A DNA stretch of 64,000 nt from Leptogorgia sarmentosa (taxonomy: Eukaryota). Under the pieces are notes generated by a model. The model had not been told where the DNA came from and ran no database searches. It worked only from the letters and a program-made list of their open reading frames with translations. Position numbers and translations under genes: made by a program. The stretch covers positions 24,490,001 to 24,554,000 of the forward strand of contig OZ210885.1 of NCBI GenBank assembly GCA_964658305.1, in the 5' to 3' direction. This document shows positions 9,340 through 62,717 of this stretch, one piece after another. Position 1 is the stretch's first letter. Each line of letters begins with the position of its first letter.

Positions 9340-9373
9340 TGGGGCCAAGATCGACCGACGAAGCCAATGCCCC
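9315..9373 (+). promoter_or_regulatory. Predicted -1 ribosomal frameshift signal (slippery heptamer plus pseudoknot)
   Basis: G GGA AAC in the gag frame at 9315-9321; stem CGGTCGA/TCGACCG with inner CTTG/CAAG; loop GGGGC can pair with GCCCC at 9369-9373; pol is in the -1 frame. Confidence 0.75.
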
Positions 9374-12300: not shown

Positions 12301-12971
12301 TTCCAATGCAACTGCATTCAGACCAAGGGCGGAATTTTGAGTCAGCTGTGTTCTCGGGAGTATGTAAGTTGCTCGGAGTTGACAAAACAAGAACTACTGC
12401 CCTCCATCCAGAATCGGACGGCATGGTAGAAAGATTCAACAGAACCCTGGAGAATCAGTTAGCCATTTTTGTAGAACATCACCAAAAAGATTGGGATGAT
12501 CATATACCTTTGCTAATGATGTCCTACCGTTCAGCCGTTCATGAAAGTACGAAACAGACACCGGCCAAGTTAATGTTTGGGCGAGAGTTGAATTTGCCAA
12601 TCGATTTGCTTTTTGGAAGACCTCCTAACGAAAGAGTTGAAAGTATTGATGATTATGTGGAAGCATTGGAGAAAAGATTGGAAAATGTGTACGAGTTTGC
12701 TCGGATACGAACACATGTTGCAAGTGATCGAATGAAGAAACGGTATGACGTGTGTGCGTCGGACGAAGTTTTCAAAGTTGGAGAGTTGGTTTGGCTTTAC
12801 AATCCGAGGAGAAGAAAAGGCCTGTCTCCTAAGCTAATGTGTGATTGGGAAGGTCCATGTGTGATTGTTAAACAAATTAACGAATTGCTGTACAGAGTTA
12901 GGAAATCCAATCGGGATAAGCCAAGAATAATACACCAGAATAGACTATGGTGTTATGCAACGGAAAACTGA
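9336..12971 (+). pseudogene. pol: Gypsy Pol (protease, RT, RNase H, integrase) with two single-base frameshifts
   Basis: IDTGAD, LDLKSGYWQ, YLDDII, LDTDAS, HHCC zinc finger, SDQG, ERFNRT; frame changes near 10620 and 12115. Confidence 0.92.
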
Positions 12972-31900: not shown

Positions 31901-32156
31901 GCAGTCTACTATTATGAATAGGACATAACAGTTGCAGATTAAAGTGGCTAACTGGACACAAGATGAATATTTTTGGCAGGATTTTGCAATCTGGAGCGCT
32001 AGTTAATATGACATGATCAAAGCGAGGATGTTGAGGATCTTTATCAAACTCCTTTAATACAGATTGTAGCACATTATGTGCGTGTTTGCTGATAAATACC
32101 GCCCAACCAGTGGCCAAGATATAGAATACTATTACCAGTGACACAACTGTTGCCAT
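28923..32156 (-). pseudogene. MULE-like transposase fused to OTU protease, two CXC domains and a SANT-like tail
   Basis: LSLDHTFKVSK, MNEHEEIV, LLDDCC, VKLDIFHACQR, GTEKNERFHRHL; OTU VVGDGNCCFHSI...PGHYDG; intron 29765-29657; then CNCG...CPC...C...CRC..CGN and a second similar repeat, and WTDLE. Stops and frameshifts near 31578, 31250 and 30420. Confidence 0.72.
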
Positions 32157-32353
32157 AACAAGTCACTTAATTTACAGCAAAAACCAGTATTGAAAAGATA
32201 TTCGCATGTCTACTACACAACTGCGTTTAAGATAGCACAGAGATGAACAAAGGCGGTGGGCGTCTCGTCGGGATTTTCAGGTAACTCTAATGGGCGTGGC
32301 ACATGGTAAAGAAGAAAAAAAAAATTGTAATAGAAAAGTTACAAAAAAACAAG

Positions 32354-33956: not shown

Positions 33957-36900
33957 TGTAAGAAACTGCTAGACAGTGTTATTTATAACCGGAACTGAGT
34001 TGGGACTTCCGGTTAGCACTGCGGGGGGGTTTTGTTGTTGTTGTTGTACAATTTTGAGGCAACGGGTTTGGTTGTGTTTTTTTTGGAACGATCGAGGATC
34101 AATAAAATGTCTAAATAAATCAGTGTGCGACTTTATTATATGGCGCCTAACGTGGGGCACTAGCCCAGTCGAAAGTTTGAGAAGATTATTTGCGAACCGA
34201 TCGAAATGTCAACCGGACAGCAAGCCAGTAACGAGCAGGGCGGCAGCGAAGCAACGAACAGCGAGGCGACGATTACGAACAGCATAGCAATGAAAAATTT
34301 CGAGAGAACCAAAGCGATACGAAGGGGACACCGTGGCGTTGTAACGAAATTGACTAACGAGGTTTCATCATACTACAGTACCGAAGAAAAATTACCCGAA
34401 GCGATGTTATACCGTTTAGAAATAATCGACCGAAATTTAGAAACCAAACTACGAGTACGCGAGGAGTTGAATCAACAAGTATTAGACGTTTGCGAAGTCG
34501 AAGAAATCGAAACAGAAATCGAGGAAGCCGAAGCAATTTTGTGGAAAATATTGGAGTGTAGAAAAATTATTGGCATAACACAGCAAAGGCAAGAATCGCT
34601 GCGTCACGAGGAGTTGTCACAAGCGCAAGAATCGAATTCGCAAGAGGAAATACAAGCTACACAACCACAACAACTTGAAGTCACAGCGCAAGAGGAAGGT
34701 TCGTCACACGAGGTGGTCAATCAAAGTCAAGGTCAAGGTACTGTGATAAACAATGTTAGTTCGACTCCAAATGTTAATACAAGCTCTATTACACGAACGC
34801 GTTTACCGAAGCTCACGCTACTAAAATTCAAGGGAAACATTATAAACTGGACAACATTTTGGGACTCTTTTCAATCAGCCATTCACAACAATGGGGACAT
34901 TACCGACATTGACAAATTCCGGATGAAATACGATTGCACATTGCACGAAGGAGCTCCAAAAATGTGTGGGAAATTAGTGAATTGCTCGAAATCATTAAGG
35001 TTGAAGTGGAACCACGAGAGGCGAGCAGTGCAGTGAAGGTCAAAGAGAGTCGCAGACAAAATGAACCCACAGGACATCAAAGAAACCGGCAGTCGTCAGC
35101 AGGAACGTTTACGACTAGAGTGAATGGTGTTGCTCCGGATAGTATCAAGTGCGTATATTGCAACGATAGCCACTTTTCCGCTTCATGCAAGAAATTTACC
35201 GACGCTAGGGAAAGAAAGGACATTCTGTATAGGGACGGACGGTGTTTCAACTGTATAAGAAAGGGGCATCAGACAAAGGATTGTCAAAGAGCTAAAACAT
35301 GTCGTGTGTGTAGTGGAAGACATCACCAGTCAATTTGCACGAGCCAGAAGGAAACCCCGAGGCCTAACCCAGACAACGAATCGCGGCAACCCCAGGCGAA
35401 GGCGGCTCAATTAGACTCTGTTACCAAGACAGTGACAGTAAAGGGCGAAAGAGTAGGGAAAACGGTTCTTCTGCAGACAGCTACAGCCGTCGTGTTCAAT
35501 GAAAGCAACTCCAAATCGGTACCTGTTAGAATCTTGTTCGACAATGGATCTCAACACTCGTATGTTACATCCCAGTTGAAGTCTCGTTTGGGTCTGAAGC
35601 CAATCAAAACAGAGACATTGCGTCTGAACACCTTTGGTCAACCTAATTACAGGAAGGAGAAATGTTCGGTTGTGAAACTTTGCTTGAAGAAACGCGAACA
35701 GGAAATTGACCTAGTTGCATTGGACTACCCCGTCATCTGTTCTCCACTTCCAACGAAGGTTTGCATCGAGCATCCGCATTTAGAGGGCCTAGAGCTGGCG
35801 GACGATTGTGAAGGCGCGTCGGCCGATATCGATATCCTTGTAGGATCGGATTATTATTGGGAGTTAGCTCGAGGGGAAGATGGCCCGACCGCAGTTGCCA
35901 GTAAGCTGGGATGGTTACTGTCTGGACCGCTGGGGGATACAGAAGAGAGCTCAAACCTTTCAGTATCCAATCTAATTATCGCTGGAAATTGCAATTCGCC
36001 CGAGAACGCAACACTAAGTGACCCTATTGTCGAAGCACTACGGCAGTTCTGGGATGTGGAGACGGCTGGCGTAATAGACAAGACTCCACCATACGACCAA
36101 GTGATAGACGACATCCGATTTGACAAGGATCGTTATGTTGTTGGACTTCCCTGGAGTTCAAAACTGTAATCCCGAATGTACCAATTACGAACTGAGTCAC
36201 AACCGTTTGAGATCATTGCACTACAAGCTCAGAAATCAACCAGATATTCTAAAGGAATACGATAGCATCTTAAAGGGACAACTCGAATCCGGAATTATAG
36301 AGGAGGTACCCAAGGACGAAATCGAGATACGAGAACCGAGTGAAGTACACTACACACCCCACCACGCGGTCGTCAGGAAGGACAAGGAGACAACGAAGGT
36401 TAGAATTGTGTATGACTGTTCGGCCAAACCAACGTCGCAGCAACGTTCGCTAAACGACTGCATGGAAACTGGTCGTAATTTTATTCCAAAATTGTTTGAA
36501 GTGTTGATCAAGTTTAGAAGCAATCCAATTGGCCTCGTGGCAGATATCGAGAAGGCGTTCCTCATGGTCGGAATACGAAAGGAAGATCGCGATCGGTTGC
36601 GGTTCTTGTGGTTTAAGCATCCCGAGAGCGCAAATCCGGAATTGGTGCAAATGCGTTTTTGTCGTCTCGCTTTTGGATTGAAGTGTTCCCCATCCATGCT
36701 AGGAGGAACAATTATGCACCATTTAAAATCGTACAAAGAGCGCTTTCCTGACATTGTAGAGATAATCAAGGAATCCCTGTATGTGGATGACCTGGTGTCT
36801 GGATCAACAAGCGATGATAAAGCGTTCGAAATTTATGAGAAATCGAAGAAAATATTCGCAGATGGCGGGTTTAACTTAAGAAAGTGGAGTTCGAATTCGA

Positions 36901-39862
36901 AGGTCCTAATGGAGAACATAAGAGGAAGTGAACGTGTCGCCGGAGACGGACAACCACCACGACGTGAACACGAAACACAACCAATGACTACCGAAGACGA
37001 CGAGACGTACGTCAAGTATCAAGTTGGTCCATACAACAACCAGGAAGAAAACGACACCGTGAAACTGCTTGGAATTAATTGGAACACTACGCGCGATGAG
37101 TTCTTCTACAACATGTCCGAACTGATTGAGTACGCCGAGACCTTGCCAGTCACTAAGCGTTCTTTGCTGAAGTTGACGGCAAAGATATTTGACCCGCTTG
37201 GGTTGCTCAGTCCTGTCACGATCAAGATGAAAATGATGTTTCAAATCTTATGCAAGGAGGGAGTCGATTGGGACGAACAACTTCGTGGAGACGTGGAAAT
37301 CCAATATCGAGGTTTCCTGGTGGACCTACATAAGATAAACCGGTTACGAATTCCCAGATGCTACTTTATGCTTGCTAGTACGCCAGTGTCAATACAATTG
37401 CATGCATTTTGTGATGCCTCGGGGAAGGCGATGGGCACAGCCGTTTATCTCAGATCAGCTTACGAAGATGGTATTGTACAAGTGCGTTTAGTCGCTTCGA
37501 AAACGAAGGTAGCGCCGATTAAGAGACAGACTATCCCTCGACAAGAACTGCTCGGGGCAGTTATCCTCGCCCGACTGGTTGACACAATCGCGAATGCCAT
37601 ACCTCGAGAAATCGAAATATTTTATTGGACAGATTCAATGACCTATTATATTGGATCCTGAACCTCAAGCAATGGAAGCAGTACGTGCAACATCGCGTAC
37701 AGCAAATATGCGGCTTGACAAAGGGAAGAGTGTGGCGACATTGCCCAGGCCATCTGAATCCGGCCGACCTACCATCGAGAGGAATTAGTGGAGCAGATAT
37801 TGTGGAGAGCAGTCTGTGGTGGTCGGGTCCAGAATTCCTTCTCAAAACTGAGGACCAATGGCCAGTGAATCCGGTAATCGACAAGGGTGAAGCTTTCGAC
37901 GAATTAGTTAGACACCCGGCTCCGACAACGTTCATCATGATCAATCAGACTGAAAGAACGGGAGGCGTAGATGTTGGCAAAATTATTGTCTGCGAACGAT
38001 TCAGCAGCCTGAATTCACTACTTCGAGTAACAGCGTATGTGTTTAGAGCAGTCGTGTCCTTCAAACGGAAAGCCAAGGACCACTCGAATCAATTGACTAA
38101 GGCACGGGAGTTGACGGCGGAAGAAATCAACACGGCAGAAACCTGTTGGATCAAGTCAGTTCAAATGACGGCGTTTGATGAGGAACTTGCGTATCTAAGT
38201 GGGAATCAGAGATCTAGTACCCCGTCACTCATGCCTCAGTTGGGACTGTTTGTAGACCGGGATGGTGTCCTCAAGAGCAGGGGTCGAATCTGGCACGCGG
38301 ATCTGCCACAATCAACCAAGACTCCTGTTCTGTTACCAGCGAAGCATGGGTTTGTCCAACTGGTTATTTTCGCCTTCCATGAAAGGGTGAAACATAGCGG
38401 AATAAGAGATACCTTGTCCACTGTTAGAGAAAGATTTTGGATCTTACGAGGGCGTGAGGCGATTAAAAGAGTCATAAGGAAGTGTGTGTTGTGTCGAAAG
38501 TTACAAGGACAGCCATTTCAACCCGAGGTTTTGCCAGATTTACCAGCTGATAGTGTATCGGAGGATCCTCCCTTTCACCATACAGGACTAGACTTTGCTG
38601 GTCCTTTGTTTGTGAGGCGATCGAAGGAGTCCGAAGAAGAGAACGAAATGGTCAAGGCGTATGTGTGTTTGTTCACATGCCAATCAACGAGAGCAATTCA
38701 TTTGGAACTGCTTCTACGTCTAGACGTTCTATCATTTTTGCAAGCGTTCCGCAGATTTGCCAGCAGAAGGGAACTGCCATCAACCTTGTTGTCAGACAAT
38801 GCGAAGAATTTTAGGTCGTCGTCTAAAGACGTAGCGAAGATTGTACGATCTGATGAAGTGAAGAGATATCTCGCCACCAATAGAATCGCGTGGAATTTCA
38901 TAGTGGAGCGAGCGCCTTGGTGGGGGGGTTTCTGGGAGCGCCTGGTAAAGAGCGTCAAGGGGTGTATCAAACGAGTTATTGGAAGAGCGTCATTATCGTT
39001 CGAAGAAATGAGGACAGTGCTCACAGAAGTGGAAGCAATCATTAATGCACGCCCTTTGACTTATTTATATGACGACGAGGAATCTATTTCATATCCGTTA
39101 AGTCCGTCCCATTTGATAAATGGTCATCGAATTACTACGACACCGAACAGCGAGCACTTTGACGTAGTCAGCACGTACAAGACCCTAACGAGAAGAGCCC
39201 GACATCAGAAGAACATTTTGCAAATGTTTACTAACCAATGGAGGAAAGAGTATTTGACCGGATTGCGGGAGCAGCATCGTATTAAGGCGAAGAAGCAAGG
39301 GGGACCATCTATATCCGTTGGTGACGTTGTAATTGTAAAGAACGACTCAACGTCAAGGTTGTTTTGGAAGCTTGCGATAGTGGAAGAGTTGATACAGGGA
39401 AGTGATGGGAAAGTTTGAGCAGCAATGGTCAAGGTGTCTAACGCTGACAAGAAACCGTCTCGACTGCGACGAGTCATACAACATCTATATCCAATCGAGA
39501 TGAAATGCGAGAACCAAGAAGGTCAGGAAGGACAAGAAAAGGCGGAGCTTGAACTGGAAGATGCGACAATAAACTGGAAAGGCCGCGAAGAAAGACAGCT
39601 GAGAGAGGAGAACTACAACGAAAGAAGAATATGTAGGGACTTATTGATCACCCCGTGGTGAATCAATCCGGGGGAGTGTAAGAAACTGCTAGACAGTGTT
39701 ATTTATAACCGGAACTGAGTTGGACTTCCGGTTAGCACTGCGGGGGGGGTTTGTTGTTGTTGTTGTTGTACAATTTTGAGGCAACGGGTTTGGTTGTGTT
39801 TTTTTTGAAACGATCGAGGATCAATAAAATGTCCAAATAAATCAGTGTGCGACTTTATTATA
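33957..39862 (+). mobile_element. BEL/Pao LTR retrotransposon, both LTRs present, coding region decayed
   Basis: LTRs 33957-34140 and 39677-39862; 5-bp TSD ATATG; PBS TGGCGCCTAACGTGGGGC (tRNA-Lys-like) at 34141; PPT before the 3' LTR. Confidence 0.96.
34206..39661 (+). pseudogene. BEL gag-pol polyprotein with a gag deletion, stops and frameshifts
   Basis: LPKLTLLKFKG (DUF1759-like), triple Cys-His knuckles, LFDNGSQ protease, ADIEKAF and YVDDL RT, FCDASG RNase H, GLDFAGP and APWWGGFWER integrase. Confidence 0.93.
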
Positions 39863-40979: not shown

Positions 40980-43900
40980 TAGTCCAGCTGTTAAACGACA
41001 TAAAATAGCCAAATTGTTCGTTTTGTGATAAAAGCATGAAACTTGGCTCAAATACTCATCTCGATGTGCTTGTTAATTTGTGATATGGAGGCATTTGAGA
41101 TATCGCCTATATTTCCTGTAATGCGCATGTCAAAAATCCTACAACGTGAAAACGAGGCTGAGCAAAGAAAGCTCGTTTTTATGAGTTTTATCCATTGAAT
41201 AAAGTCGAAAATAGTTGTAAAACATTGTTTAAGGATTAGTTTGTATTATTAGGTGTTTTAAGAATTTTCACATGATCACCCACGTGAAGACGGTAGGAGG
41301 TGCTGTTTCAAACCTGGTTGTAAAATTCCTCTAAACTAAAACACTAAATTATGTTAAAGTATATTTTTGTCCTTTACTTGTTAAAGCTGGAGAAATTGCA
41401 TATTTCATCTCAAAAAACTTTATTCAGCGGAGGGGAGGTGGGGGGGGGGGGTGATTGAGAGGTTCATGTATTTTAGTGTCCAGTCCTATCGCGTTTTTCA
41501 AGATGGCGACTTGCAATGTCAAAGGTTAATGTTACCGTTCATCTACAACAACTGTAAGTAAAGTTCTTGATAGTTTTTTTTTGGTTTAAAATGTTCACTA
41601 TTCAATCATAACACTTTAAATTGCTTAAATATTACAATTATCAAAAAGAAAAGACAATACTTCTATGAAATAGCGATAATTTAGTACAGTTTTATCGATG
41701 TTGAACTCAGTATTATAGTTGACACGGTAAAATATAATATGTATGGATGCATGAATGGATAAATCAACTTTATTTCAAAAGGATAAATAAGTATGAGTTA
41801 CAAAACGTTTTTGAATGAAAGCTATTGGCAATTAAATTTTAAAACCATCCAAAAGGAATTGTATAAGTCCATGATGATAGATACAAATCATTCAAGCTCT
41901 TATTAAATTTAATTACGATCTCATTTATATTACGTCGCATTACGACACTTTTTATTTTACTTTTTATTTCACTTGTATTCACTTAAAGGGTCTTGTGATG
42001 GCTACCCTCAGTAATCAGTCTACAATACCTATTAATTGGAAACTCTGTGTCATTTGTCAAGTTAAAACTAACGAGCCTCTACAATGTCCTGCAAATTCAA
42101 AAAGAAGTGACGTGGGAGCAGGATACAAATCTTTAGTCGACAACATAAAGTTGTTTCACGATGTCGGTGAGATCCCATTAAAAGTTGATCTAAGTAAACT
42201 GAATGATGGTTCAGGAGTTGAAAATTCATTACTCCAAAATAAAGCTTCATGAGCTTCATGGCATAAGTCATGCAGGAACAAATTTAACATTACTGAGATC
42301 AAAAGAGCTCAAAAACGAAAGGCATGTGAGAATGAAAGACGACCCAAAGAAAGCAGCCCATGTAGGACGAGGTGGACAAGCTCATTGCATTCTTTTAAGG
42401 GGAAGAGTAGTGAACTTAGATGTTTCTTCTGCGATGAAGTTGATAGTAATGCTAACCTCCATCGTGCATCGACTGAAGTAATAGATAAAAGAGTGAAAGA
42501 ATGTGCTGTCCAATTAAAAGACAGGAATCTCCTAACCAAACTGGCTGCTGCCGGTGATATGGTAGCCCTAGAAGCAAAATATCACTCCCGCTGTCTGGCA
42601 TCGTTGTACAATCGCTACAGGAAAATGGCCAACACAAATAGTGATAAAGCATCAGGACAAGAAAAACGCCTGCACGGAATTGCTTTTGCAGAAATCATTT
42701 CCTACATTGAAGAATTCTTTGAAGAGAGAAATACGAGTAGTAATGTTCCCAGTCTCAGGCTAGCAGATCTTGCGAAGATGTACATGACAAAACTCAAAGA
42801 ACTAGGTGTTGATACAAGTCGTGTCAATACCACAAGACTAAAAGAAAGAATACTGTCAACTTTACCACATGTGTCAGCACATCCGCAAGGAAGAGACATA
42901 GTATTAGTTTTAGATCGTGATGTTGGGGGCGCCATAAAGTTGCTAAATGACCAAGACACTGATGTTGAGGCAATGCATCTCGTCAGAGCTGCCAAAGTAA
43001 CACGCAAGGACATCCTGAAGCAGAATCAGTCATTCAAAGGAACATTTGACACTGACTGCCAAGAGAACGCAATCCCTCAGTCTCTTAAAGCTCTCATTAA
43101 TTTTATTTTGAGAGGGCCAGGTACCCAAAGAAACACAGCCATCAAAGAATCAGTAGAAGTAAATGAAACACAAGCCTCCCGTTCTATATCTCAGCTAATT
43201 ATCTACAACACAACCATACGTCAGGCTAAAACACCCCAAAATGCTACACGCCATAAGAGAGAAAGAGAAACACCTCTCCCAATATATGTTGCACTCAAAA
43301 TACATGGCCTTACTAGAGGACGAGGTTTGATCGACGCACTATTCAACCTTGGACTTTGCATTTCCTATGACAGAGTGTTAAGCATATCAACAGACATTGC
43401 GAATGCCATGTGTGAACGATTTGACAAAGATGGTGTAGTCTGTCCTCCAGTATTAAGAAGTGGAATCTTTACTACAGCTGGCTTTGATAATATTGATCAT
43501 AATCCGAGCTCCACTACATCTCGAGATTCATTTCATGGCACAGCAATTTCACTAATTCAACACCCGACAAAGCAAACACCGGGAACTGTTAGAGAAGCGA
43601 CTGTTATAGATGGCCGCCCTCAGAAAGAAAGGGAAATTTCCTCACTACCAACCCAATTCAGTGATGTCCAGCCATTAGTTTTATTACAGCGAGATCTGTC
43701 ACCTCCACCACTGATCGGGCAGCTCCCAGACGTAGAGAATGTGAACAATTATGCATACAAGAAAGAAGACCAGTGGCTTCTTAATGTAAAGGAACTTATG
43801 AGGAAAGAGAAACTTGAATCAGATGATAATATTTCATGGGCTGCTTACCATGCATCAAACGAACGGGAACTGAACTATGAACCAGCTATTACTTCACTGA

Positions 43901-46782
43901 TGCCCTTGTTCCTAGAAAACGCACATTCTGCTCCAATGATTCTTCACGGTATGAATGTCATCCGCTCCGCAGTAGGGCTAGTAAATCCAGGTCAGACTCC
44001 CGTTATCGCAATGGACCAGCCGCTTTTCGCTCTGGCGAAACAGATCCAGTGGCAATGGCCCCACACTCATGGAGAAGACAAACTGTTGGTGATGTTTGGA
44101 GGTTTGCATATTGAGATGGCAGTGCTAAGAACATTGGGTAATTATTGCATAATAGTTATTATTTTTCCATCTATTTAAACATTGTTACTGATTTAAATGT
44201 TTTTCCTTTTTAATCTCATATATTGTTAGCGAATTGATCATTGCGTTTTTAAGAACTTTGTATTATTATTTAGGTAAGTGGCTAGATAAGAGTGGATGGA
44301 CAACTGTCATGGTAAATGCTGGTGTTGCAACCCCTGGTGTTGTCGACTCTTTCACCTCAGCTAAACACATCACAAGAACTAGAAGAGCTCATCAAGTATC
44401 TTCCGCCTCCCTGTACATTCTTCAGCAGTGTGCATATGAAAAGTACGTTACAAAAGCTGAAGATAGAGTCCCCCTGTCGTTTACAGATTGGAGAGATAAG
44501 AAATCAGAACAGTGCCCACAATTTCTCTACTGGTGCAGAGTCATGGAGCTGCAGCTACTTTCCTTGCAGTTGGTTAAAGCATTTAGGACAGCGGATTTCA
44601 AGTTGTATGTTGACTCCCTAACGAAGATGATGCCTTGGATGTTTGCACTTGACCAGACAAATTATTGCAGATGGTTACCAGTCCATATCCGTGATATGCA
44701 AGAGCTTCCTATCAAACACCCTGATGTGTACGAGAAATTTACCAGTGGCTTCTTCGTTGTTCATAAGACGCAGAAACGATTCTCTGCTATGGCACTGGAC
44801 CAGGCACACGAACAGGAGAACGCAGTGATCAAAGGTGAAGGTGGGGCGGTAGGACTTACGGAGAACCCAGGCGCTCTAAAACGCTGGATGATTTCTGGGC
44901 CCGAGATTGCCAGAATCGTCAACGAATTTGAAAAGACAACAACAACATCCTCTAATGACAGTCTAAAGCACCACGAACAGTCATACAGTCATCGAGTGGC
45001 ATTTCAGAAGGATATACAGTCAGTGGTTGACAGTTTTGAAGAGCTGGGAAATCCCTTTTTGGAGGAAGGTAAAGATCTGCTAGCAGTTGACACCAAGGAT
45101 ATCATGAACAATGACGTTGTGGAAGCTGTGAAGAATGTTGAGAAAATAGGCCAAGAAAAGCACTCAACGTATGTAGAATGTAGACTGAAACGCAGGACAA
45201 CACCCATCACAGAGCCTATCACGAAAAACAAGTTGTCTTTATTTAATAATTCATACGAGAACGTTCAATCCAAGGACAAATCAAAGATTCTTCAGTTAAA
45301 AAATGACTGTTCATTGTTCTCTCGGTTGTATATTGCGTGTCAAAACCGAGACGGAAACCTTGAAGAGTTCTTTAAGCACGAAAATCAGCCTTGGCCACCG
45401 TCACTAGCCGACAAAGGAGAACTCAGAAAAGGACAGAAATCTGACCTAGTGAAATGCCTTGAGGCCCTTCAGACAAACATCACCAATGAAGCCCCCGTAG
45501 TGGAGAGTGTGGTTGTAGATGGCGCAGTTGCCGTTCAAATGTTGAAACCAGGCACAGCACGTACCTTTCAAGAGTATATTGATACTGTTTTCAAGCCCTA
45601 TGTCCTCAAGCAACTTGAACATGTCAAGAGAGTAGACATCGTATGGGATGTGTACAGAGAAGACTCACTGAAAACAGGCACAAGAGAAAAGAGAGGTAAA
45701 GCAACACGTCGCAGAGTGTTACCAACAACTGCTATCCCAGGCGACTTGAGCTCTTTTCTTCGTGTGGATCAAAATAAAGTAGAACTCTTCCACCTACTAT
45801 CCCAAGAAACGGCCTCGTTGGAAGTAGAACATCGAGAAATATATACCACCATCGATAAAAATGTCTTACACTCTGGGTCATGTCGAAATGATCTATCACC
45901 TCTACAGCCATGTACACATGAAGAAGCAGACACAAGGATCATGTTACATGTGAAGGATTCAGCTGTCTGTGGACATCAAAGTATCATGATACGAACCATT
46001 GACACTGACGTTGCTGTATTAGCAATATCAATGAATCTAATCTAAAAGCTAATCTAGACTGTACAGCCTTATGCCTCTGTGCTGGGCATTCTCTCCAAGA
46101 CTCCTGATCAGGCGATGTAAGTTACGTTTGTGGTTACACAATAACAAAATCAAATTACGTTTTAGTTCATTTGAGTCACGTGTTTTAGCACGCGATAATT
46201 TTAACTCTCTCACAGTCTTTCTAGATTAACCCCTTAAAACAATTTCAGCAATATTTGACGTCAAAATGGACTAGGGACGTGACATTTTTGGTCAGCCTCG
46301 TTTTCATATTATTTTTTTGGCATACACATTTAAAAAGGTAGGCCTTTTCTGAGATAACGTCTGTCTCCATATCACAAATTAACAAGCACATCGAATTGAG
46401 TAAGTATGGCAGGTTTTATGCCTTTATCACTGAACGATCTATTTTTGTTTTAAGAGCCTTCTATTTCGTTTGAGTCACGTGGTTGACCATGTGTTATTCA
46501 CTAAAACGCTCTCACAACATTTCTCCATTTTCTAACTCCTTAAACAATGTTTTACAACTATTTTCGACATTATTCAATCGATAAAACTTATAAAAACGTG
46601 CTTTTTTTGCTCAGCCTCGTTTTCATGCTGGAGCATTTTTGACATGCGCATTACAGGAAATATAGGCGATATCTCAAATGCCTCCATATCACAAATTAAC
46701 AAGCACATCGAGTTGAGTATTTCTGCCAAGTTTCATGCTTTTATCACAAAATGAACAATTTTTCACCTTAACAGCTGGACTA
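40980..46782 (+). mobile_element. Academ DNA transposon in an intron of the ATPase-like gene
   Basis: Termini TAGTCCAGCTGTTAA...TTAACAGCTGGACTA with about 300-bp imperfect TIRs; 3-bp TSD GTG; duplicated subterminal block at about 46150-46480. Confidence 0.92.
41998..46108 (+). pseudogene. Academ transposase with XPG-like domain, disrupted
   Basis: FDNIDHNP, SFHGT, MDQPLFALAK, FGGLHIEM, DQAHEQEN, HEEADTRI, DTDV; intron about 44139-44273; in-frame TGA at 42250; deletion near 46040 before the terminal CTALCLC. Confidence 0.9.
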
Positions 46783-48671: not shown

Positions 48672-48792
48672 CTATTAGTACTATGGAGTACTATGTAGGG
48701 CTATGTACCATTATGGAGGGTTAAGAAAAGATATTCGTAATTCATGATTACGAAGATGTATAGAATGCTATGTAGTACTATGGAGTTCCATG
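48672..48792 (+). repeat. Degenerate internal copy of the element B right-TIR segment plus the first 10-bp units
   Basis: TATGTAGGGCTATGTACCATTATGGAGGGTTAAGAAAAGATATTC...ATGTATAGAA resembles 57500-57567 in the same orientation. Confidence 0.8.
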
Positions 48793-51700
48793 AACAAGGG
48801 GGAATTTCGTTCTCGACCAATCAGTGCATTTGTTGACATTTTTGCGCTAAGCCAATCAGAACGCGTAAATCGCTATTTTGTAAACAAAGATGGGTACAAA
48901 TATATACTTTACTCTTCGGCTTTGTTGCCATTGGAATCTTGATATTTTATTCTGAAATTATAATATGTTGTTTAGGAAAGATTTTCCTACAATATTACCG
49001 TGGCGATTTGTAAATAATGGCGATTTCGGGGAGATATGCACGTCCAAACTTTGCCGCGCGCAAGCATAAATAATGCCCTTCGAATCCACCAACCTTTTGA
49101 CATCTTAACTTATTAACTTGTTAATTTCCCGTTTCTAAACATGGTGAATTCACGATCAGAGTGTCATGAGTCATGACATGCACACATGACAAACGGATGC
49201 TTTGCGAACGTTTTCAATCGCTTTTATTTTGCGAAGGAAAGCGAATGATATTCTGAAACTCACCGAACTTCAAGACATCGAAGTCTCAAACCTATGCCAA
49301 CATTTCACCCTCGATATCAAATTGAAGACAGTCTGTGTGTCGGTTGTATTTTGGAATTCGCCTTCTTCATCAACATCAAGCGACTCGAGAAGTGACTCGT
49401 CCTCGTTGTCATCTTCTTCATTGTCTGTCAAAGTTTCCTCATCATCGGGCCCTTGACTGTCGTCTGATGAAGGAGCGAACTCATGGACTGCTTTATTTGC
49501 CGCTTCTCCGAGTGATGCAGCTTTCGACATGAGGAACTCTTGGCAAATCTTGCACACGCTTATGTCTGGAAGGTTGCACTGGAGATGAAAGGAATGCCCA
49601 CAGCCAAGAAAGACGCGCCATAATGTGCTTGTGTGAGTGCAATGGACGGCATCACACACTCTGGTTTAAATCACAGAGTAAGAATAAGGTAAGGACTGAT
49701 CTATATATTTTTATTATTATGACCGATTATATGTAACTTACTTTTGTGGATTTGGTGACATTTCCACTGAGAAAAATCCAAGTGGGAGCACTCTGTTGGT
49801 TACAACTTGGTCACCAAATAAATTGGGTAAGACCCATCTGCTCATGTCCTTCCTCTGCCTGTGCTGCCGTGGTTGTTGGGTGGCTTGTCCTGAGTGGGAG
49901 TGGATTAGCTCAAACTTTTTAACTAAATATTCAGCTGCTTTGGTTTTTAAACAATCAATCCGCTTTCTGCTGAAGTTAAATTTTCTGGGTGGGACAAATG
50001 ATGACTGAGACTCCTGCATTTCTGTCTTGCATGCATCAATCTCTCTGGCCTTCTCCTGAACTTGCTCTGCCATGTCTGTGTCGTTTGTCCTTGCTCTGAG
50101 CACAGAGTGGAAGTTTTCCACAGGGTATTCGTCCAAAGCTACCAAAAATTGTTGGATGACGTGGTTCAGTGGGTGATTGTTTTCATGCCAATAATGGAAA
50201 TTAGAAAGAGCAATAAGCAGTGCTTTATCGTAATGCCGGCGACAAAATACCATCATCATAACCCAACAACGGAATAATGATTTGCAGTAGAGGTTGTAAT
50301 TACTGCCCTTAAAGACAACTGAGTAAATGCTTAGCACAAGTGGCACATAGTTATCGATGAGGTTGACTAAGGTAAGATATTCAATGTCCTTGCAATTTGG
50401 GAAAACTGACATAATAGTGTCTCGAATAAGAGTCCAACCCCCATAGATGACCTCTAGGAGTAAGGATAGTCGCCAAGCTTTCGGTTTTTTTGCCAGCTTT
50501 GCCTTTGTGCCGAAGAGGAATGAATACAGTTCAGCAAATACAGTGTGGAACTGGAGGAAAACAGACTCTCGGGAGTTTAAGGAAATATGTAGTGGGCCAA
50601 TAAGTGGGATGACGTTGTTGCAGACAGTGGGAAGAGATACAGATGCAGTGTTGTACACAAGTTGTCGCATGAAGAATTGCATAGGCCAATCTGCAGGAAA
50701 GGGAGCTACGAAATTGCTCAGGTAATCTTCTAAACCATTAGCCAATATATGTTTGAAAGCAACCAGGACATCTTTGTAGGATTTCAAGGGCAATTTGAGA
50801 CTGTCAACAAGCTTGGTGTTATCCATACGTCGCATCTCTCTGATTTCGGTCTGTTGATAGTCATGAATTGCAACTCGCTTTTTTTCTGCCTCGGGGTCAA
50901 AATACTCGGCAACTGCCCAATCAGGCATTGTGCTGGCATATGTTTGGGAACAAGTGCTCATATGCTCCACTATTAACTGTTTCAGTGAAGTTTCCTCAAC
51001 AGGATTAGCAGGTAATATAGGGTGAATGTAATCATTAGGAACAGCTTGAATGTTTGGAAAAACTTTGACAAGGAGAGTTGTGGTGTGCACTGCTTGGGTT
51101 TGGGTCTTACTCTCAGGACGGTGCTTCGTATGAATGTTATGATAATCGTCAATACAAAATATAATAAATTGTTGCTTTTCTATTACAGTTTGAAAGAATA
51201 CTTTCACTCTATCAAGGTGGGAAGCTGATGAAGTTAGCATAGAGGCTTTCATGGTACGTGGGTGTGCAACAATCCCCAGATTTCGCAGCGATGCAAGTCC
51301 TTGCTGGCTAATACCGAACTGTTGAAGGGTTCTTGCCAGAGATAATTGGAACCAGTTAGCACGCTGTGACCTGGAATACATCATGATGTACAGTACAACC
51401 ATAACTCTTAGCTTTGTCAACTGCTGCCGCTCACCTGACATCCGAGTTGAACTCATTGCATTGATGAATGTCGAAAAGAGATTTGAAACTCCAGCCTGTG
51501 TACAAATTTCTTGAAATTGATCAGGATCCATTACAGGGGGCTGTGGATCATATGCAAGAAAGAATGTTTTCAACTTTTCTAGGTCACCTTCAATGTCGAT
51601 GATATCAGCAGTTTTTCGAAGCAGCTCTTCATATTCACCCTTTGAAATGACAGTTACTTCTGTTGTCTGGCACTCAACACTTGTCTTTGTCTTCAAAACT

Positions 51701-52985
51701 TCAAATACCTCGGAATTTTGACTTGGGGAACTCAGTGTGACAGTTGACTCAGTGCTTTGGCTACCAGATAACTGAATGGTGGAAATACTTGCAGTTTGGG
51801 TGTGTTCACTACTGGGTGATGAGTAGGAGGCGGAATGGACAGGGACACTTGCAGTCGCAGCCACATCTTCATTTTCTTTCACAAACTCACTTGGCAGATA
51901 AGTCGATAAACTGTTCAGCTACATTAAGAAAATATTTACCTGTTTATTACTACTATGTTAATTCCCAAATTACTATAGAATGCGAATGCGGGCCACACAC
52001 TGGCAAGTAATGGTAACTTGGCAAAACAATAGTTTTGACTTTCGGTACCTGCCAGAGTACTGTATTAATGGTGTGAAACCAATACAGTATACATTACTAA
52101 TGTCCACTCCAATGTAGTCCAAATGTTGTTTATGTCCATACAGCACATGTAACCCTAAACTTTTTTCATGTCACTAAGTCTCTTTCATTTTTTTTTCAGA
52201 AAATACTGACTTACAAGATATATCAATAATATTCCAATATACATTATTATTCCATTAGTATTCCCCTTACCTTCATTTCAATACTGTCCATATGTAGTCG
52301 TTTTGGCAAATGACGAGTGATATTTCTCTTTTTGAGGCACTCGTGAATACAATTTTTGCAAAGTTGGCTGATTTTTTTTGACGTTTCAATTTGTTTTTCA
52401 CATGCCAAAAAAATAGAAAGCGCTTGTCCCAACTCACACCAACCAAACGCTTTTAATTTTACCATCTTGGAGTCTTCATACCCTTCAGACCACTCGTTGT
52501 GAAGAGGGTTATTGCACTTTTTTCCAAATCTAGGCATTTTATTGTACGAATTTCTCAAGCGGATAACTATAGAACAACGTATAGACTTCGAAAGACTTGT
52601 GTGTTTGGAATTCATTATTTTCCCGTTGGCGGGAAAATATAGCGTTCGAAAGAACACTATATCTAATTTCGATTTAATTTCGAGTTTGGTGGATTCGAAG
52701 GGCATTATTTATGCTTGCGCGCGGCAAAGTTTGGACGTGCATATCTCCCCGAAATCGCCATTATTTACAAATCGCCACGGTAATATTGTAGGAAAATCTT
52801 TCCTAAACAACATATTATAATTTCAGAATAAAATATCAAGATTCCAATGGCAACAAAGCCGAAGAGTAAAGTATATATTTGTACCCATCTTTGTTTACAA
52901 AATAGCGATTTACGCGTTCTGATTGGCTTAGCGCAAAAATGTCAACAAATGCGCTGATTGGTCGAGAACGAAATTCCCCCTTGTT
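48793..52985 (-). mobile_element. Unclassified 4193-bp DNA transposon X, apparently intact
   Basis: 300-bp TIRs 48793-49092 and 52686-52985 (AACAAGGGGGAATT...; one mismatch seen); exact 9-bp TSD AGTTCCATG on both sides; inserted in the 10-bp satellite. Confidence 0.93.
49270..52537 (-). CDS. 944-aa putative DDE transposase with N-terminal Cys/His cluster and C-terminal RING-H2
   Basis: Exons 52537-52271, 51918-49742 and 49660-49270 splice GT-AG in phase (2835 nt, no stops). Motifs CIDDYHNIH, PADWPMQ, IGPLHISLN, EYPVENFHSVLR; RING CDAVHC...CGHSFHLQC...CKIC; acidic tail. Confidence 0.8.
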
Positions 52986-55900
52986 AGTTCCATGGAGTTC
53001 TATGCAGTACTATGGAGTTCTATGGAGTACTATGGAGTACTATGGAGTACTATGGAGTACTATGGAGTTCTATGCAGTTCTATGGAGTTCTATGGAGTTC
53101 CATGGAGTACTATGGAGTTCTATGGAGTTCTATGCAGTTCTATGGAGTACTATGGATTTCTATGGAGTTCCATGGAGTACGATGGAGTACTGTGCAGTTC
53201 TATGGAGTACGATGGAGTTCCATGGAGTACTATGGAGTTCCATGGAGTACGATGGAGTTCTATGGAGTTCCATGGAGTACTATGGAGTTCCATGGAGTAC
53301 TATGGAGTTCCATGGAGTACTGTGGAGATCTATGCAGTACTATGGAGTACTATGGAGTTCCATGGAGTACTGTGGAGTTCTATGGAGTACTATGGAGTTC
53401 CATGGAGTACTGTGGAGTTCCATGGAGTACTATGGAGTTCCATGGAGTACTATGGAGTTCCATGGAGTACTGTGGAGATCTATGCAGTACTATGGAGTAC
53501 TATGGAGTTCCATGGAGTACTGTGGAGTTCTATGGAGTACTATGGAGTACTATGGAGTTCCATGGAGTACTATGGAGTTCTATGGAGTTCCATGGAGTAC
53601 TATGGAGTTCTATGCAGTACTATGCAGTACTATGGAGTACTATGGAGTGCTATGGAGTTCCATGGAGTACTATGGAGTTCTATGCAGTTCTATGCAATAC
53701 TATGGATTTCTATGGAGTTCCATGGAGTACGATGGAGTTCCATGGAGTACTGTGCAGTTCTATGGAGTACGATGGAGTTCCATGGAGTACTATGGAGTTC
53801 CATGGAGTACGATGGAGTTCTATGGAGTTCCATGGAGTACTATGGAGTACTATGGAGTTCCATGGAGTACTGTGGAGATCTATGCAGTACTATGGAGTTC
53901 CATGGAGTTCCATGGAGTTCCATGGAGTACTGTGGAGATCTATGCAGTACTATGGAGTACTATGGAGTTCCATGGAGTACTGTGGAGTTCTATGGAGTAC
54001 TATGGAGTTCCATGGAGTACTATGGAGTTCTATGGAGTTCCATGGAGTACTATGGAGTTCCATGGAGTACTATGGAGCTCCATGGAGTACTATGGAGTTC
54101 CATGGAGTTCCATGGAGTTCCATGGAGTACTATGGAGCTCCATGGAGTACTATGGAGTTCTATGGAGTTCCATGGAGTACTATGGAGCTCCATGGAGTAC
54201 TATGGAGTTCCATGGAGTTCCATTGAGTACTGTGGAAATCTATGCAGTACTATGGAGTACTATGGAGCTCCATGGAGTACTATGGAGTTCCATGGAGTTC
54301 TATGGAGTTCCATGGAGTACTATGGAGTTCCATGGAGTACTGTGGAGTTCCATGGAGTTCTATGGAGTTCCATGGAGTACTATGGAGTTCCATGGAGTAC
54401 TATGGAGTTCCATGGAGTACTATGGAGTTCCATGGAGTACTATGGAGTTCCATGGAGTACTATCGAGTTCCATGGAGTACTATCGAGTTCCATGGAGTAC
54501 TATGGAGTTCCATGGAGTACTATGGAGTTCCATGGAGTACTATGGAGTTCCATGGAGTACTATGGAGTTCCATGGAGTACTATCGAGTTCCATGGAGTAC
54601 TATGGAGTTCCATGGAGTACTATGGAGTTCCATGGAGTTCCATGGAGTACTATGGAGCTCCATGGAGTACTATGGAGTTCCATGGAGTTCCATGGAGTTC
54701 CATGGAGTACTATGGAGCTCCATGGAGTACTATGGAGTTCTATGGAGTTCCATGGAGTACTATGGAGCTCCATGGAGTACTATAAAGTTCCATGGAGTTC
54801 CATTGAGTACTGTGGAGATCTATGCAGTACTATGGAGTACTATGGAGCTCCATGGAGTACTATGGAGTTCCATGGAGTACTATGGAGTTCCATGGAGTTC
54901 TATGGAGTTCCATGGAGTACTATGGAGTTCCATGGAGTACTGTGGAGTTCCATGGAGTTCTATGGAGTTCCATGGAGTACTATGGAGTTCCATGGAGTAC
55001 TATGGAGTTCCATGGAGTACTATGGAGTTCCATGGAGTACTATGGAGTTCCATGGAGTACTATCGAGTTCCATGGAGAACTATCGAGTTCCATGGAGTAC
55101 TATGGAGTTCCATGGAGTACTATGGAGTTCCATGGAGTACTATGGAGTTCCATGGAGTACTATGGAGTTCCATGGAGTACTATCGAGTTCCATGGAGTAC
55201 TATGGAGTTCCATGGAGTACTATGGAGTTCCATGGAGTTCCATGGAGTACTATGGAGCTCCATGGAGTACTATGGAGTTCCATGGAGTTCCATGGAGTTC
55301 CATGGAGTACTATGGAGCTCCATGGAGTACTATGGAGTTCTATGGAGTTCCATGGAGTACTATGGAGCTCCATGGAGTACTATAAAGTTCCATGGAGTTC
55401 CATTGAGTACTGTGGAGATCTATGCAGTACCATGGAGTACTATGGAGTTCTATGGAGTTCCATGGAGTACTATGGAGCTCCATGGAGTACTATGGAGTTC
55501 CATGGAGTACTGTGGAGATCTATGCAGTACTATGGAGTACTATGGAGTTCCATGGAGTACTGTGGAGTTCTATGGAATACTATGGAGTTCCATGGAGTAC
55601 TATGGAGCTCCATGGAGTACTATGGAGTTCCATGGAGTACTATGGAGTTCCATGGAGTTCCATGGAGTACTATGGAGTTCCATGGAGTACTGTGGAGATC
55701 TATGCAGTACTATGGAGTTCCATGGAGTACTGTGGAGTTCTATGGAGTTCCATGGAGTACTATGGAGTTCTATGGAGTTCCATGGAGTACTATGGAGTTC
55801 TATGGAGTTCCATGGAGTACTATGGAGTTCCATGGAGTACTGTGGAGTTCCATGGAGTTCCATGGAGTACTATGGAGTTCCATGGAGTACTATGGAGTTC

Positions 55901-57505
55901 CATGGAGTACTATGGAGTTCCATGGAGTACTATGGAGTTCCATGGAGTACTATGGAGTTCCATGGAGTACTATGGAGTTCCATGGAGTACTATGGAGTTC
56001 CATGGAGTACTATGGAGTTCCATGGAGTTCCATGGAGTTCTATGGAGTTCCATGGAGTACTGTGGAGATCTATGCAGTACTATGGAGTACTATGGAGCTC
56101 CATGGAGTTCCATGGAGTTCTATGGAGTTCCATGGATTTCTATGGAGTGCCATGGAGTTCCATGGAGTACTGTGGAGATCTATGCAGTACTATGGAGTAC
56201 TATGGAGTTCCATGGAGTACTGTGGAGTTCTATGGAGTACTATGGAGTTCCATGGAGTACTATGGAGTTCCATGGAGTACTATGGAGTTCTATGGAGTTC
56301 CATGGAGTTCCATGGAGTACTATGGAGCTCCATGGAGTACTATGGAGTTCCATGGAGTACTGTGGAGATCTATGCAGTACTATGGAGTACTATGGAGTTC
56401 CATGGAGTACTGTGGAGTTCTATGGAATACTATGGAGTTCCATGGAGTACTATGGAGCTCCATGGAGTACTATGGAGTTCCATGGAGTACTATGGAGTTC
56501 CATGGAGTTCCATGGAGTACTATGGAGTTCCATGGAGTACTGTGGAGATCTATGCAGTACTATGGAGTTCCATGGAGTACTGTGGAGTTCTATGGAGTTC
56601 CATGGAGTACTATGGAGTTCTATGGAGTTCCATGGAGTACTATGGAGTTCCATGGAGTACTATGGAGTTCCATGGAGTACTGTGGAGATCTATGCAATAC
56701 TATGGAGTACTATGGAGTTCCATGGAGTACTGTAAAGTTCTATGGAGTTCCATGGAGTACTATGGAGTTCTATGGAGTACTATGGAGTTCTATGGAGTTC
56801 TATGGAGTTCCATGGAGTTCTATGGAGTTCCATGGAGTACTATGGAGTTCCATGGAGTACTGTGGAGGTCTATGCAGTACTATGGAGTTCCATGGAGTTC
56901 CATGGAGTACTGTAAAGTTCTATGGAGTACTATGGAGTTCCATGGAGTACTATGAAGTTCCATGGAGTACTATGGAGTTCCATGGAGTACTATGGAGCTC
57001 CATGAAGTACTATGGAGTTCTATGGAGTTCCATGGAGTACTATGGAGTTCCATGGAGTACTGTGGAGATCTATGCAGTACTATGGAGCTCCATGGAGTAC
57101 TATGGAGTACTATGGAGTTCCATGGAGTACTGTGGAGTTCTATGGAATACTATGGAGTTCCATGGAGTACTATGGAGCTCCATGGAGTACTATGGAGTTC
57201 CATGGAGTTCTATGGAGTTCCATGGAGTTCTATGGAGTTCCATGGAGTACTATGGAGTTCCATGGAGTACTGTGGAGATCTATGCAGTACCATGGAGTAC
57301 TATGGAGTTCCATGGAGTACTGTGGAGTTCTATGGAGTTCCATGGAGTACTATGGAATTCCATGGAGTACTATGGAGTTCCATGGAGTTCTATGCAGTAC
57401 TATGGAGTTCCATGGAGTACTATGGAGTACTATGGAGTTCCATGGAGTACTGTGGAGTTCTATGGAGTACTATGCAGTACTATGGAATACTATGTAGTAC
57501 TATGT
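52986..57505 (+). repeat. About 4.5-kb 10-bp satellite (YATGGAGTWC), right arm of element B
   Basis: About 450 in-register units, mostly TATGGAGTTC and CATGGAGTAC, with recurrent variants TGTGGAGATC and TATGCAGTAC. Confidence 0.99.
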
Positions 57506-57866: not shown

Positions 57867-59358
57867 ATGGCGGAAATACAAAAATGGAGGAGATTTGCGA
57901 ACGCCATAAAAAAGAAACGAACGACAGGCCAAACAACAAAGAAAAATGGAAATCAAAAAGAAAGTAACAGCGGTGGTTCGTCGGACAACAGTATTTTTGA
58001 AAGAAAAGAGCTTTTAGTGCAACTGTTAGCAACAGAAGCTACTGGAAAGGCGAAGAAATATGAAAGAACTGGTCCCAAGGAATTTGTGGCTTTTCCGTAC
58101 GAAGAAGTAACAATTCCTAACATCATAAGGGCTTGCAATAAACATTTTCAAAAGCATCTCAAGGGCAAGTCAGTTGATGTTCTGGCAAGCGAACGTGGTC
58201 CTTCGTGTTCCAAAATCTCGCAACTGCCAGATCTTAAATTAATACACGTGCGTTTTGTCATCAATTCCTCGGTTCCTCTCTCGAGTTCTCCATTTCCCAG
58301 CTATAGGGAAGGTTTGTCCTCTGGTGTATTAACGCCACGAATATCTGTTCCGTGCTCCACAATTAGTTCCAGTCTGAAGCGACGAACATCACCACCATTG
58401 TGAGTGAACAAGTTCCCCAAAAGCCTTCCAGTAACCGCGATGATGAAGCTAGGCTCACCCATTAACGTCACAGACTGTCAAAGTGAAACTTTAGTTGACG
58501 TTTCCTGCTTCGACATAAATAAAATGGCTTGGTCAACTCCCATCTTTGTTCCATTTACCATAGAAAAAGAAGAATTTGGAAAAGGTGGCTTTCGTTCTGC
58601 ATACAAAGCATCTTGTAACTTGCCTCATTTTCCAACAAGAGCATATGTTGTCAAATACTTTTTGGAAAGTACTAAGAAAATTATTAGCGACCTTGGAGAG
58701 TCGGAGTTGTATCACGCTCGAAAATCGGTCCAAATGCATTCCCTGGCCAAACATTTTTCGGAAAAAATTGCTACCAAGGTGAAAAAGGATGGGAATGAAG
58801 AAGTGTTTGGAAGAACCTTCAGGTATAATAAAATAACATGAAATCTAAGGTCTTATTGCCATCAAGTGTGCTAATATCAATTATTTACGAAAGTCTGGTT
58901 CGGGGTTTGATTGGATCTACTTGGACACACACATGCTTGCTTTAATATTTTCAGTTTTTTATTTCTCTAGATATGTAGATGCTCATCTTGGAATTGTCAA
59001 AGATACGCAACAGGTTGTCACAATTGAAGAACTTGTGACAGGCAGTTTCGAGAAGTATGTGAATAATGATGGTGTCATTTGTAAGAACAAGAATGATGAT
59101 TTGCAAAACAAGGCAGAGTGTCTCGTCCACTTCTCTTATATCAAATCCAATAGGAAATTAATGCTTGTGGATATCCAAGGTGCAGGCCACAATCTGACAG
59201 ATCCAGAAATTGCATCACTTACTGGGGCTTATGATGATGAGAACCATTTGCTTTTCTGTGCTGGCAACTTTTCCAAAGAAGCTTATGCCAACTTTTTTAA
59301 GGTACATGAGTGCAATGCGTTTTGCAATTTGCTGGAACTTTCACCCGAAGATGTTTGA
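57867..59358 (+). CDS. Alpha-kinase (eEF2K/MHCK/TRPM-type) domain protein with one in-frame TGA
   Basis: FGKGGFRSAYKA, YVVKYF, FEKYVNNDG, HFSY, LVDIQG, LTDPEIAS, GNFS, HECNAFC; intron 58823-58970 joins in phase; TGA at 58401-58403. Confidence 0.88.
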
Positions 59359-61498: not shown

Positions 61499-62717
61499 AT
61501 GGCGGACAAAGTTCTCGCAAAATTTACTCTTTTAAAAAAGCATAGAGTTCTTTGCAAAAAGACTTTGACTACTATTAGCATTATCTGCCATTACTATATG
61601 TAATCCTCCAGTTGATCGAGGAGTATGGATGTTACCTCGTACTGATCACTGGTATTCAATTGTGCGGACAAAATCGTCAGATAAGGAGTGGTATTCGAAT
61701 TTCCGCGTTTCTGGGGAAACGTTTGATTACATACTGTCCAGAATTTCTACCGAGATCAGCCACAAAGACACTAAACTATGTGAAGCAATTCCTCCAACAA
61801 AACGTCTAGCCATTTATCTGTACTATTTGGGCTCTACTGCTGAATATCGAACTATCGCGAACTTGTTTGGTGTGTCGAATGCATTCGTTTGTTTATGCGT
61901 TAAGGAGGTATCTGAGGCTATTTATAAGAAAATGAAGAAGAAGTTTCTGTGTCTAAGGGTGATGACCTGAAGAATGTCATGGCAATGTACAAAGAAAGGT
62001 GGGGATTTCCTATGTGTCCAGGTGCCATTGATGGCACACACATTGCAATACAAGCCCCTGCTGGAAACCATGCTGATTATGTCAACAGAAAAAGTTATCA
62101 TAGTATAGTAATGCAGGCAGTGGTGGACTGCCAGTATCTTTTTTGTGATGTCGTCATTGGATGGCCAGGCAGTGTCCATGACGCTAGAGTCCTGTCCAAT
62201 TTGGAGATTTACAGCCTTGGTTCCCAATCGCAGTTGTTTGATGTCAATGTGAAAAAGAAAATTCTTGGTGTTGATGTTGGGCCAGTTATTCTTGGCGACC
62301 CTGCCTATCCACTCCTGATATGGCTGATGAAAGCATATTCTGAAAACGCCAACACACCCAAATGGCAGACGTTTTAATTATCGGCTTAGTAGGGCCAGAA
62401 TGACTGTCGAGAACACATTCGGTAGGTGGAAGGGTCGGTTTAGAAGATTTAGCAAGAGAGTTGATATGCAAGTTGAATCAGTTACCTACCTTGCAGCCTC
62501 TTCATGTGTTGTTCACAACATCTGTGAGCTTAGACGAGATGACTTTTTTCAAGAGTGGTTAGAAGTGTGCAACAATGTTGACCAACCTGAAAGCCTACCA
62601 TTATCAAATGAAGATGTGGATTCACAATGTGAGTCAGATGCCACAGTTGTTCGAGATACTCTGGCAAGATATTTCACAACAATGGAGGGCAGAAATATTG
62701 AGCAAGGGATTGTATAA
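61499..62717 (+). pseudogene. Harbinger/HARBI1-like transposase, frameshifted
   Basis: NFRVSGETF, YRTIANLFGVS, GAIDGTHI, GWPGSVHDARV, LGDPAYPL, VENTFGRWKGRF, VHNIC; frameshifts near 61620, 61950 and 62372. Confidence 0.92.

Follow-up and report, generated by a model that had tools for sequence, protein, structure and literature searches.

A 64,000-nucleotide stretch of Leptogorgia sarmentosa DNA (NCBI GenBank assembly GCA_964658305.1, contig OZ210885.1, positions 24,490,001 to 24,554,000 of the forward strand; hereafter the window) contains a DNA transposon at positions 48793-52985 that probably represents a third lineage of DDE transposons related to Academ, one that carries neither a helicase nor an XPG-type nuclease. 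Academ elements are among the least studied groups of DNA transposons. The named lineages are associated with different target-site duplications, of 9-10 bp where a helicase is encoded (AcademH) and of 3-4 bp where a nuclease is encoded (AcademX), as stated in PMC10045372. Because AcademX requires the XPG domain together with a 3-4-bp duplication and AcademH requires a helicase, the element falls outside both; its mode of action is probably that of an Academ-type DDE transposon, though it is a member of neither. If this assignment is true, duplications of 9-10 bp would be made by an element with neither extra enzyme, meaning that their length is set by the transposase alone, a point that can be tested directly with this compact, unbroken copy and its single gene. 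The assignment would also provide an identity for proteins, numbering in the thousands and now labelled 'uncharacterized', from corals, other invertebrates and mycorrhizal fungi, and the conserved fusion of transposase and finger has a role, in DNA binding or in ubiquitin control, that is open to assay. What is new here is an unbroken copy with defined ends, a duplication and a fold.

The element comprises 4,193 bp and both of its ends are exact. Its terminal inverted repeats (TIRs) lie at 48793-49092 (plus strand, the 3' end relative to the gene, beginning AACAAGGGGG) and at 52686-52985 (minus strand, the 5' end relative to the gene). They agree at 299 of 300 bases with a single mismatch at position 33, and identity collapses beyond base 300; within the window, the terminal 17-mer is present solely at these two ends. 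A 9-bp duplication, AGTTCCATG, occupies 48784-48792 and 52986-52994 on the plus strand, and 9 bp was the sole fitting length among the 1-20 bp tested. The right copy is also the first unit of a 10-bp satellite that extends over 52992-57498 (~4.5 kb), which places the insertion site at the satellite edge. Since the satellite is rich in the same 9-mer (152 occurrences in about 451 units), the match is weaker evidence than it would be in unique DNA, a context that went unmentioned in the preliminary description of this DNA, which had correctly reported both the near-identical 300-bp repeats and the exact duplication. In a satellite phase test, removal of 9 bp gave the best 10-bp period (32 of 40 positions), as compared with 25-26 positions for removal of 0, 8 or 10 bp. 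The left edge of the 4.5-kb array, where the element is placed, is degenerate, and the same satellite occurs three times in the window (26870-27003, 27769-28141 and 52992-57498), in both orientations.

The gene is encoded on the minus strand by three exons (52537-52271, 51918-49742 and 49660-49270) that yield a protein of 944 amino acids with one terminal stop and no internal stop. Both introns are GT-AG; intron 1 (51919-52270) is 352 bp in phase 0 and intron 2 (49661-49741) is 81 bp in phase 2. Exon 1 supplies the ATG and a putative zinc-binding N-terminus (C-x4-H ... C-x2-C) conserved in the related protein P0053 and in the related loci L001, L005 and L007, exon 2 encodes a low-complexity linker, a helical domain and a modelled DDE core with a helical insertion, and exon 3 encodes a RING-like finger, a helix, an acidic tail and the stop. 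P0053 (961 aa) gives a single alignment block from residue 1 to residue 873 at 48% identity, which spans both splice junctions, and junction 2 is crossed by 58 alignments among 268 stored proteins. Intron 1 interrupts the same donor codon in L005 and L007, two of the three loci with exon 1, and the donor position of intron 2 is shared by five of seven relatives examined, with exon 3 beginning at the same acceptor position in relatives. The three-exon, unbroken reading proposed earlier was stop-free when recomputed, and both intron positions are common to close relatives. Purifying selection is evident in 13 alignments from 12 loci, in which the proportion of nonsynonymous differences (pN) is 0.11-0.28 and that of synonymous differences (pS) 0.70-0.91; the ratio of the corresponding substitution rates (dN/dS) is 0.04 and 0.08 in the two unsaturated alignments. 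This anatomy and the unbroken spliced frame support the earlier view of an intact, young TIR transposon, and from its sequence the 4.2-kb element is likely a recently inserted, autonomous cut-and-paste transposon.

Contigs from 8 of 24 listed public runs were aligned to the element. Among the joints listed, none matched either predicted intron, which is not informative either way. Run X4 contained plus-strand GT..AG joints with good splice context at 49688 to 50497, 50371 to 50497 and 50721 to 51189 (within 49689-51188), which were absent from runs X1, X3 and X5 and likely represent spliced antisense transcripts through the transposase gene. Runs X9 and X10 contained a minus-strand GT..AG joint at 48952-49093, within the 3' TIR, which is likely an intron of the 3' untranslated region.

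The predicted catalytic span (50116-51150, minus strand) runs from D346/D347 through D499 and the GxxH motif with H533 to E686/E690, and of 71 aligned sequences, 70-71 retain each of these six residues. An AlphaFold2 model of exon 2 (mean predicted local distance difference test score, pLDDT, 83; predicted template modelling score 0.80) has D346/347 and D499 on strands or at strand ends and E690 in the helix that follows the insertion, the layout that a DDE triad should have. We infer from the fold that D346/D347, D499 and E690 (or E686) are the putative catalytic residues. Structural comparison of the model by VIA-align ranked the P element transposase (Z 11.4, 364 aligned residues, root-mean-square deviation 6.5) and Hermes (Z 10.7) at the top, tied within 1 Z, followed by Tn5 (Z 9.0), ISCth4 (Z 8.5, rank four) and then integrases, whose cores scored Z 7-8, while a piggyBac-type core (6x67) scored Z 5.1. 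As modelled, the core is an RNase H-type DDE fold with a helical insertion, which bears out the fold expected in the preliminary description. A sequence search of the PDB with P0118 gave 0 matches. The P element transposase (6p5a) and the hAT transposase Hermes (8edg) share with the window element an RNase H DDE core that a large insertion of helices interrupts, but identity is 8-11% and the element has no THAP or BED Pfam match. P elements and hAT elements typically have 8-bp duplications and CA..TG ends, neither of which is seen in the window element, and the P element superfamily combines its 8-bp duplication with an N-terminal THAP domain. MuDR/MULE elements have a MULE transposase domain and 9-10-bp duplications; the duplication length thus fits, though Pfam found no MULE domain in the element or in 51 relatives.

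Several comparisons point from this core to Academ. Its ESM language-model features score 0.97-0.98 against DUF6589 clusters. We compared a profile of 141 family cores, from 171 long proteins, with one of 28 XPG-type Academ cores, from 120 homologs of the Academ element that neighbours the transposon in the window (40980-46782). The hhalign alignment was colinear and paired both aspartate motifs, the GxxH motif and the helix preceding the last acidic motif, with a score of 34.8 (E 0.003), where five shuffled controls and a reversed one scored 14-25, and the motifs Y-L-W-x-HY and GxxH occur in the same order in both profiles. The conservation among 71 sequences and the colinear alignment support the Academ-like order of D, D, GxxH and E that had been noted by eye, and we consider a sequence relationship to Academ to be probable but distant. 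With the neighbouring AcademX element the transposon shares this order, the weak colinear profile match and long TIRs, but it lacks an XPG-like domain, has a 9-bp rather than a 3-bp duplication, and has AAC..GTT rather than TAG..CTA ends. With AcademH, as described in citing papers (PMC10045372, PMC10799480), it shares 9-10-bp duplications, TIRs, a range of animals and fungi, and features matching DUF6589 clusters. It differs in that the element and the five relatives with both ends that were checked have no helicase, no DUF6589 match exceeds the cut-off, and the element carries a RING-H2-like finger and A..T termini. The absence of both accessory enzymes, claimed from the first, stood up well: the protein ends in the finger, helix and acidic tail with no XPG Pfam match in the element or its relatives, and the element has neither room nor frame for a helicase.

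Related loci provide further evidence for mobility. At exactly 48793, contigs diverge into other flanks, mostly with low flank agreement, in runs X4 (1), X9 (4), X10 (2), X7 (6) and X12 (8), the last two of which are labelled as other organisms. No contig representing an empty site was found in the 8 runs aligned. Contig depth at the element ends is ~10-40x that of the interior, a hint only and not a copy number. Internally deleted derivatives, with greater depth in the contigs than the full element, are marked in several runs by recurrent deletion joints (50506-51659, 49326-49526 and 49330-49543) and by an insertion of 162 bases at 49715. Among 67 related loci, which were searched for inverted repeats where at least 2.5 kb long and of which 23 were studied in detail, six have both ends and represent three families: L009 (3.7 kb), L010-L013 (6.4 kb, 99.5% identical, with differing flanks) and L065 (3.9 kb). 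The start A(A/G)CA(A/G) is common to these families, to the window element and to L005, whose terminus is located inside another open reading frame; homologous TIR ends surround the gene in four divergent families. The duplication at L012 is exact, 10 bp long and outside satellite DNA, shortening to 8 bp when each end is set one base further out, and at L010 a duplication of 9 or 10 bp fits with one terminal change; L010-L013 alone can also be read as YAG..CTR with 8 bp. The five relatives with both ends that were checked (L011 excluded) each have one long frame, the next longest being at most 160 aa, and no helicase frame. As a candidate component of the family a helicase was rejected, the motif in L033 lying inside the transposase frame and a fragment beside L061 being absent from its 94%-identical sister copy, L057.

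The preliminary description treated the element as if it were a lone oddity, which it is not, as it is one member of a family found across animals, Glomeromycota and a nucleariid. Searches gave 255 proteins at E 0.001 or better in a 90% collection, the nearest of those with names being cnidarian, and 2,965 clusters in a 50% collection, some of which may match only the accessory tails that the profile includes. Members named among 20 proteins looked up come from Diversispora, Gigaspora, Oscarella, Lingula, Pompholyxophrys, Ptychodera, Branchiostoma, Montipora and Porites, giving a range of sponge, cnidarians, brachiopod, hemichordate, amphioxus, nucleariid and Glomeromycota; they are annotated as 'uncharacterized' or 'hypothetical', except for one 'RING-type domain-containing' protein. 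Within the family, the tree separates Glomeromycota, a sponge-bilaterian group and cnidarian groups. Three family members (L065 at 120-4006, L066 and L067) lie on contigs filed in bacterial metagenome-assembled genomes. Prokaryotic membership was rejected, these three appearing to be eukaryotic contaminants; L065, an AT-rich, intronless, 930-aa element with matching termini, groups with Glomeromycota and is likely contamination. None of 13 pattern matches in viral contigs was a relative, and the one match to the element's terminal 17-mer, L068, was dismissed as chance.

The assignment of the element to a third lineage beside AcademX and AcademH has to be weighed against contrary observations. 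Pfam left the core unmatched in the element's three frames, with sub-threshold RING matches only, and the sole sub-threshold DUF6589 match among 51 relatives is to P0145 (E 0.0016, 17.7 bits as against a cut-off of 27). The hhalign probability is 10%, and a single-sequence profile comparison to the window's Academ gave 0.3%. Foldseek with the core model returned no match at E 0.001 or better, the sub-significant entries near the top of its list being Hermes, P element, Transib and RAG1. A quick 51-row tree, unfinished, with long branches meeting and no AcademH rows, has a very long branch of about 7.4 changes per column between the family and six Academ-like rows. The termini of the window element and five related ends start with AAC or AGC and are not the TAG..CTA of the window's Academ, a type of terminus (YR..YR) that is typical of Academ. 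In L061, a RecQ-like helicase N-terminal fragment (1-225) lies upstream of, and divergent from, a decayed family member. The duplication evidence is thin as well, with a satellite site in the window and only L012 exact and L010 near among the six loci with both ends. L009, L013 and L065 have no duplication, and L011 is a chimera of L012's left flank and L010's right flank; collapsed assemblies account for L011 and may do so for the rest. The expectation of 9-bp duplications at further copies was borne out in part, at L012 (10 bp) and L010 (9 or 10 bp).

These points leave room for other explanations of the element. It could be a sublineage of AcademH that has lost its helicase or borrows one in trans, perhaps one that Repbase or Dfam already lists with an Academ name such as 'Academ-2', which is in use, without definition, for a mushroom and bivalves. 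The 9-10-bp duplications fall in the AcademH range (PMC10045372), the nearest Atlas clusters carry DUF6589, and the RecQ-like fragment adjoins a family member in L061. We nonetheless judge this unlikely, as the DUF6589 match is below the cut-off and confined to one of 51 members, the family has termini and a finger of its own and itself spans animals, Glomeromycota and a nucleariid, and neither a helicase frame in the five checked relatives with both ends nor, as weaker evidence, any relative of 1,911-5,000 aa among 5,253 candidates was found. A greater departure from the third-lineage assignment would be a separate DDE superfamily no nearer to Academ than to other transposases with an insertion domain, P and hAT among them. 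The P element is the best structural match, the family's closing motif presumably resembles that of P elements, and the long branch to XPG-type Academ and the distinct A..T termini agree with separation. However, no Academ structure is among the structural matches, so the P element match is the nearest available; to our knowledge, no Academ structure has been solved. The ESM features, the DUF6589 match and the hhalign comparison are three weak lines that all lead to Academ, with which the GxxH and Y-L-W-x-HY motifs align in order, and we hold a separate superfamily to be very unlikely. That the ends and duplication are incidental, arising from satellite rearrangement or a captured host gene, with the protein a domesticated host gene, is scarcely credible. 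The duplication within a satellite rich in that 9-mer and the three related loci with both ends but no duplication would accord with it, but it is largely refuted by the many distinct flanks at the same base 48793, by the homologous TIR ends in four divergent families (L005, L009, L010-L013 and L065) and by the exact duplication of L012 outside satellite DNA.

No Academ-like lineage that lacks both helicase and XPG and bears a RING is described in the literature searched, which excluded Repbase Reports and most subscription papers. PMC5718144, PMC7805219 and PMC12730594 contain no passage on Academ, and a curated bivalve library with 100 Academ consensus sequences (PMC10294476) may include members. 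Judged from this literature without comparison to Repbase or Dfam, the lineage is apparently undescribed, as the preliminary description had suggested, and its finger is conserved family-wide.

The C-terminal finger (49543-49656, minus strand, residues 817-854) has the pattern C-x4-C ... C-x-H-x2-H-x2-C ... C-x2-C and appears to be an ancestral accessory module of the family. Of 54 family proteins in which the core is complete and the tail of sufficient length, 47 have the motif, and in 37 aligned sequences, selected because they contain the region, conservation of each of the eight ligands is 90% or higher. Its profile matches the RING-H2 E3 ubiquitin ligases Arkadia, EL5 and RNF38 at E 1e-4 to 4e-4. 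The C3H2C3 ligand pattern of RING-H2 is present, with the first pair mostly C-x4-C instead of C-x2-C, a short second loop and no helix tryptophan, which is a feature of typical E3 RINGs. The finger is modelled with pLDDT >90, and structure searches with this model were weak, the best Foldseek match having E 0.83 (none at 0.001 or below), with PHD fingers first and RINGs at ranks 10 and 17, and the best VIA-align score being Z 3.5. One AcademH sublineage carries a PHD finger; PHD as the type of the present finger was ruled out by the ligand order C-x-H-x2-H-x2-C. The RING-H2 label given earlier is upheld by ligand pattern and sequence profile, with weak matches in structure searches, and the 'built-in E3 ligase' attached to it is not established, E3 ligase activity being possible but less likely than not, and a finger that binds DNA or chromatin at least as likely.

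Some relatives carry additional modules that bear on the finger. A deubiquitinase-like tail of the herpes-tegument (VTD) type, absent from the window element, is found in 16 of 54 relatives, and Herpes_teg_N gave weak matches on 2 of 17. Tail-extended relatives (L010-L013, P0110, P0116-P0122, P0161 and P0169) have a second small zinc motif and the VTD-like domain, and the VTD-like motif has E-x-H in place of the invariant D-x-H in 15 of 24 matches. PMC9741609 describes Helitron VTD deubiquitinases, proposed to protect transposition proteins, and cnidarian VTD fusions with transposon-associated domains; the same domain type is here carried by a DDE transposase rather than RepHel. Because 16 of 54 relatives add such a tail, the finger may act in ubiquitin-linked control of transposase turnover. 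In piggyBac, a C-terminal cross-brace finger binds the transposon ends, according to PMC5861402, and by this analogy a role in binding DNA, chromatin or a partner has close to even likelihood, with other or structural roles taking up the remainder. The resemblance to piggyBac is limited to a RING/PHD-like finger at the transposase C-terminus, as the catalytic core is of an unrelated type and the ligand pattern of the window element's finger is RING-H2-like.

For a transposon of the proposed third lineage, the spliced 944-aa protein would bind the TIRs, likely through the N-terminal zinc motif and the helical domain, pair the ends, and cut and join DNA by means of an RNase H fold like that of P, hAT and RAG, using D346 or D347, D499 and either E690 or E686. 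Attack staggered by 9-10 bp, followed by host repair, would generate the duplication without an element-encoded helicase, and the copies with internal deletions, which are more numerous, would be moved by this enzyme as well. A bolder reading makes the family its own superfamily beside Academ, opisthokont-wide, with a working RING ubiquitin ligase predating the animal-fungal split and a deubiquitinase in several branches that together would set the ubiquitin state of the transposase or target chromatin, the present copy being a ready-made active single-gene member; we regard this combination as quite unlikely.

Other elements in the window were noted in passing. The neighbouring Academ element (40980-46782) has TAG..CTA ends and a 3-bp duplication (GTG), and its TIRs are long and imperfect; a split at about 44140-44270 looks like an intron, and the frame stops at 46045 in a region that we take, from its motifs, to be XPG-like, Pfam having given no match. 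The earlier statement that the 4.2-kb transposon is the only undamaged DNA transposon in the window holds with respect to this neighbour, the one element that the comparison covered. Frameshifted Gypsy-like and BEL-like retroelements, a hAT-like fragment, a broken element with CXC- and OTU-like frames and a Harbinger-like fragment were recognized by eye from translations among the intervals 7768-12971, 34164-39418, 21160-21840, 28923-32162 and 61569-62714, and two frames at 58404-59355 presumably carry alpha-kinase-like motifs.

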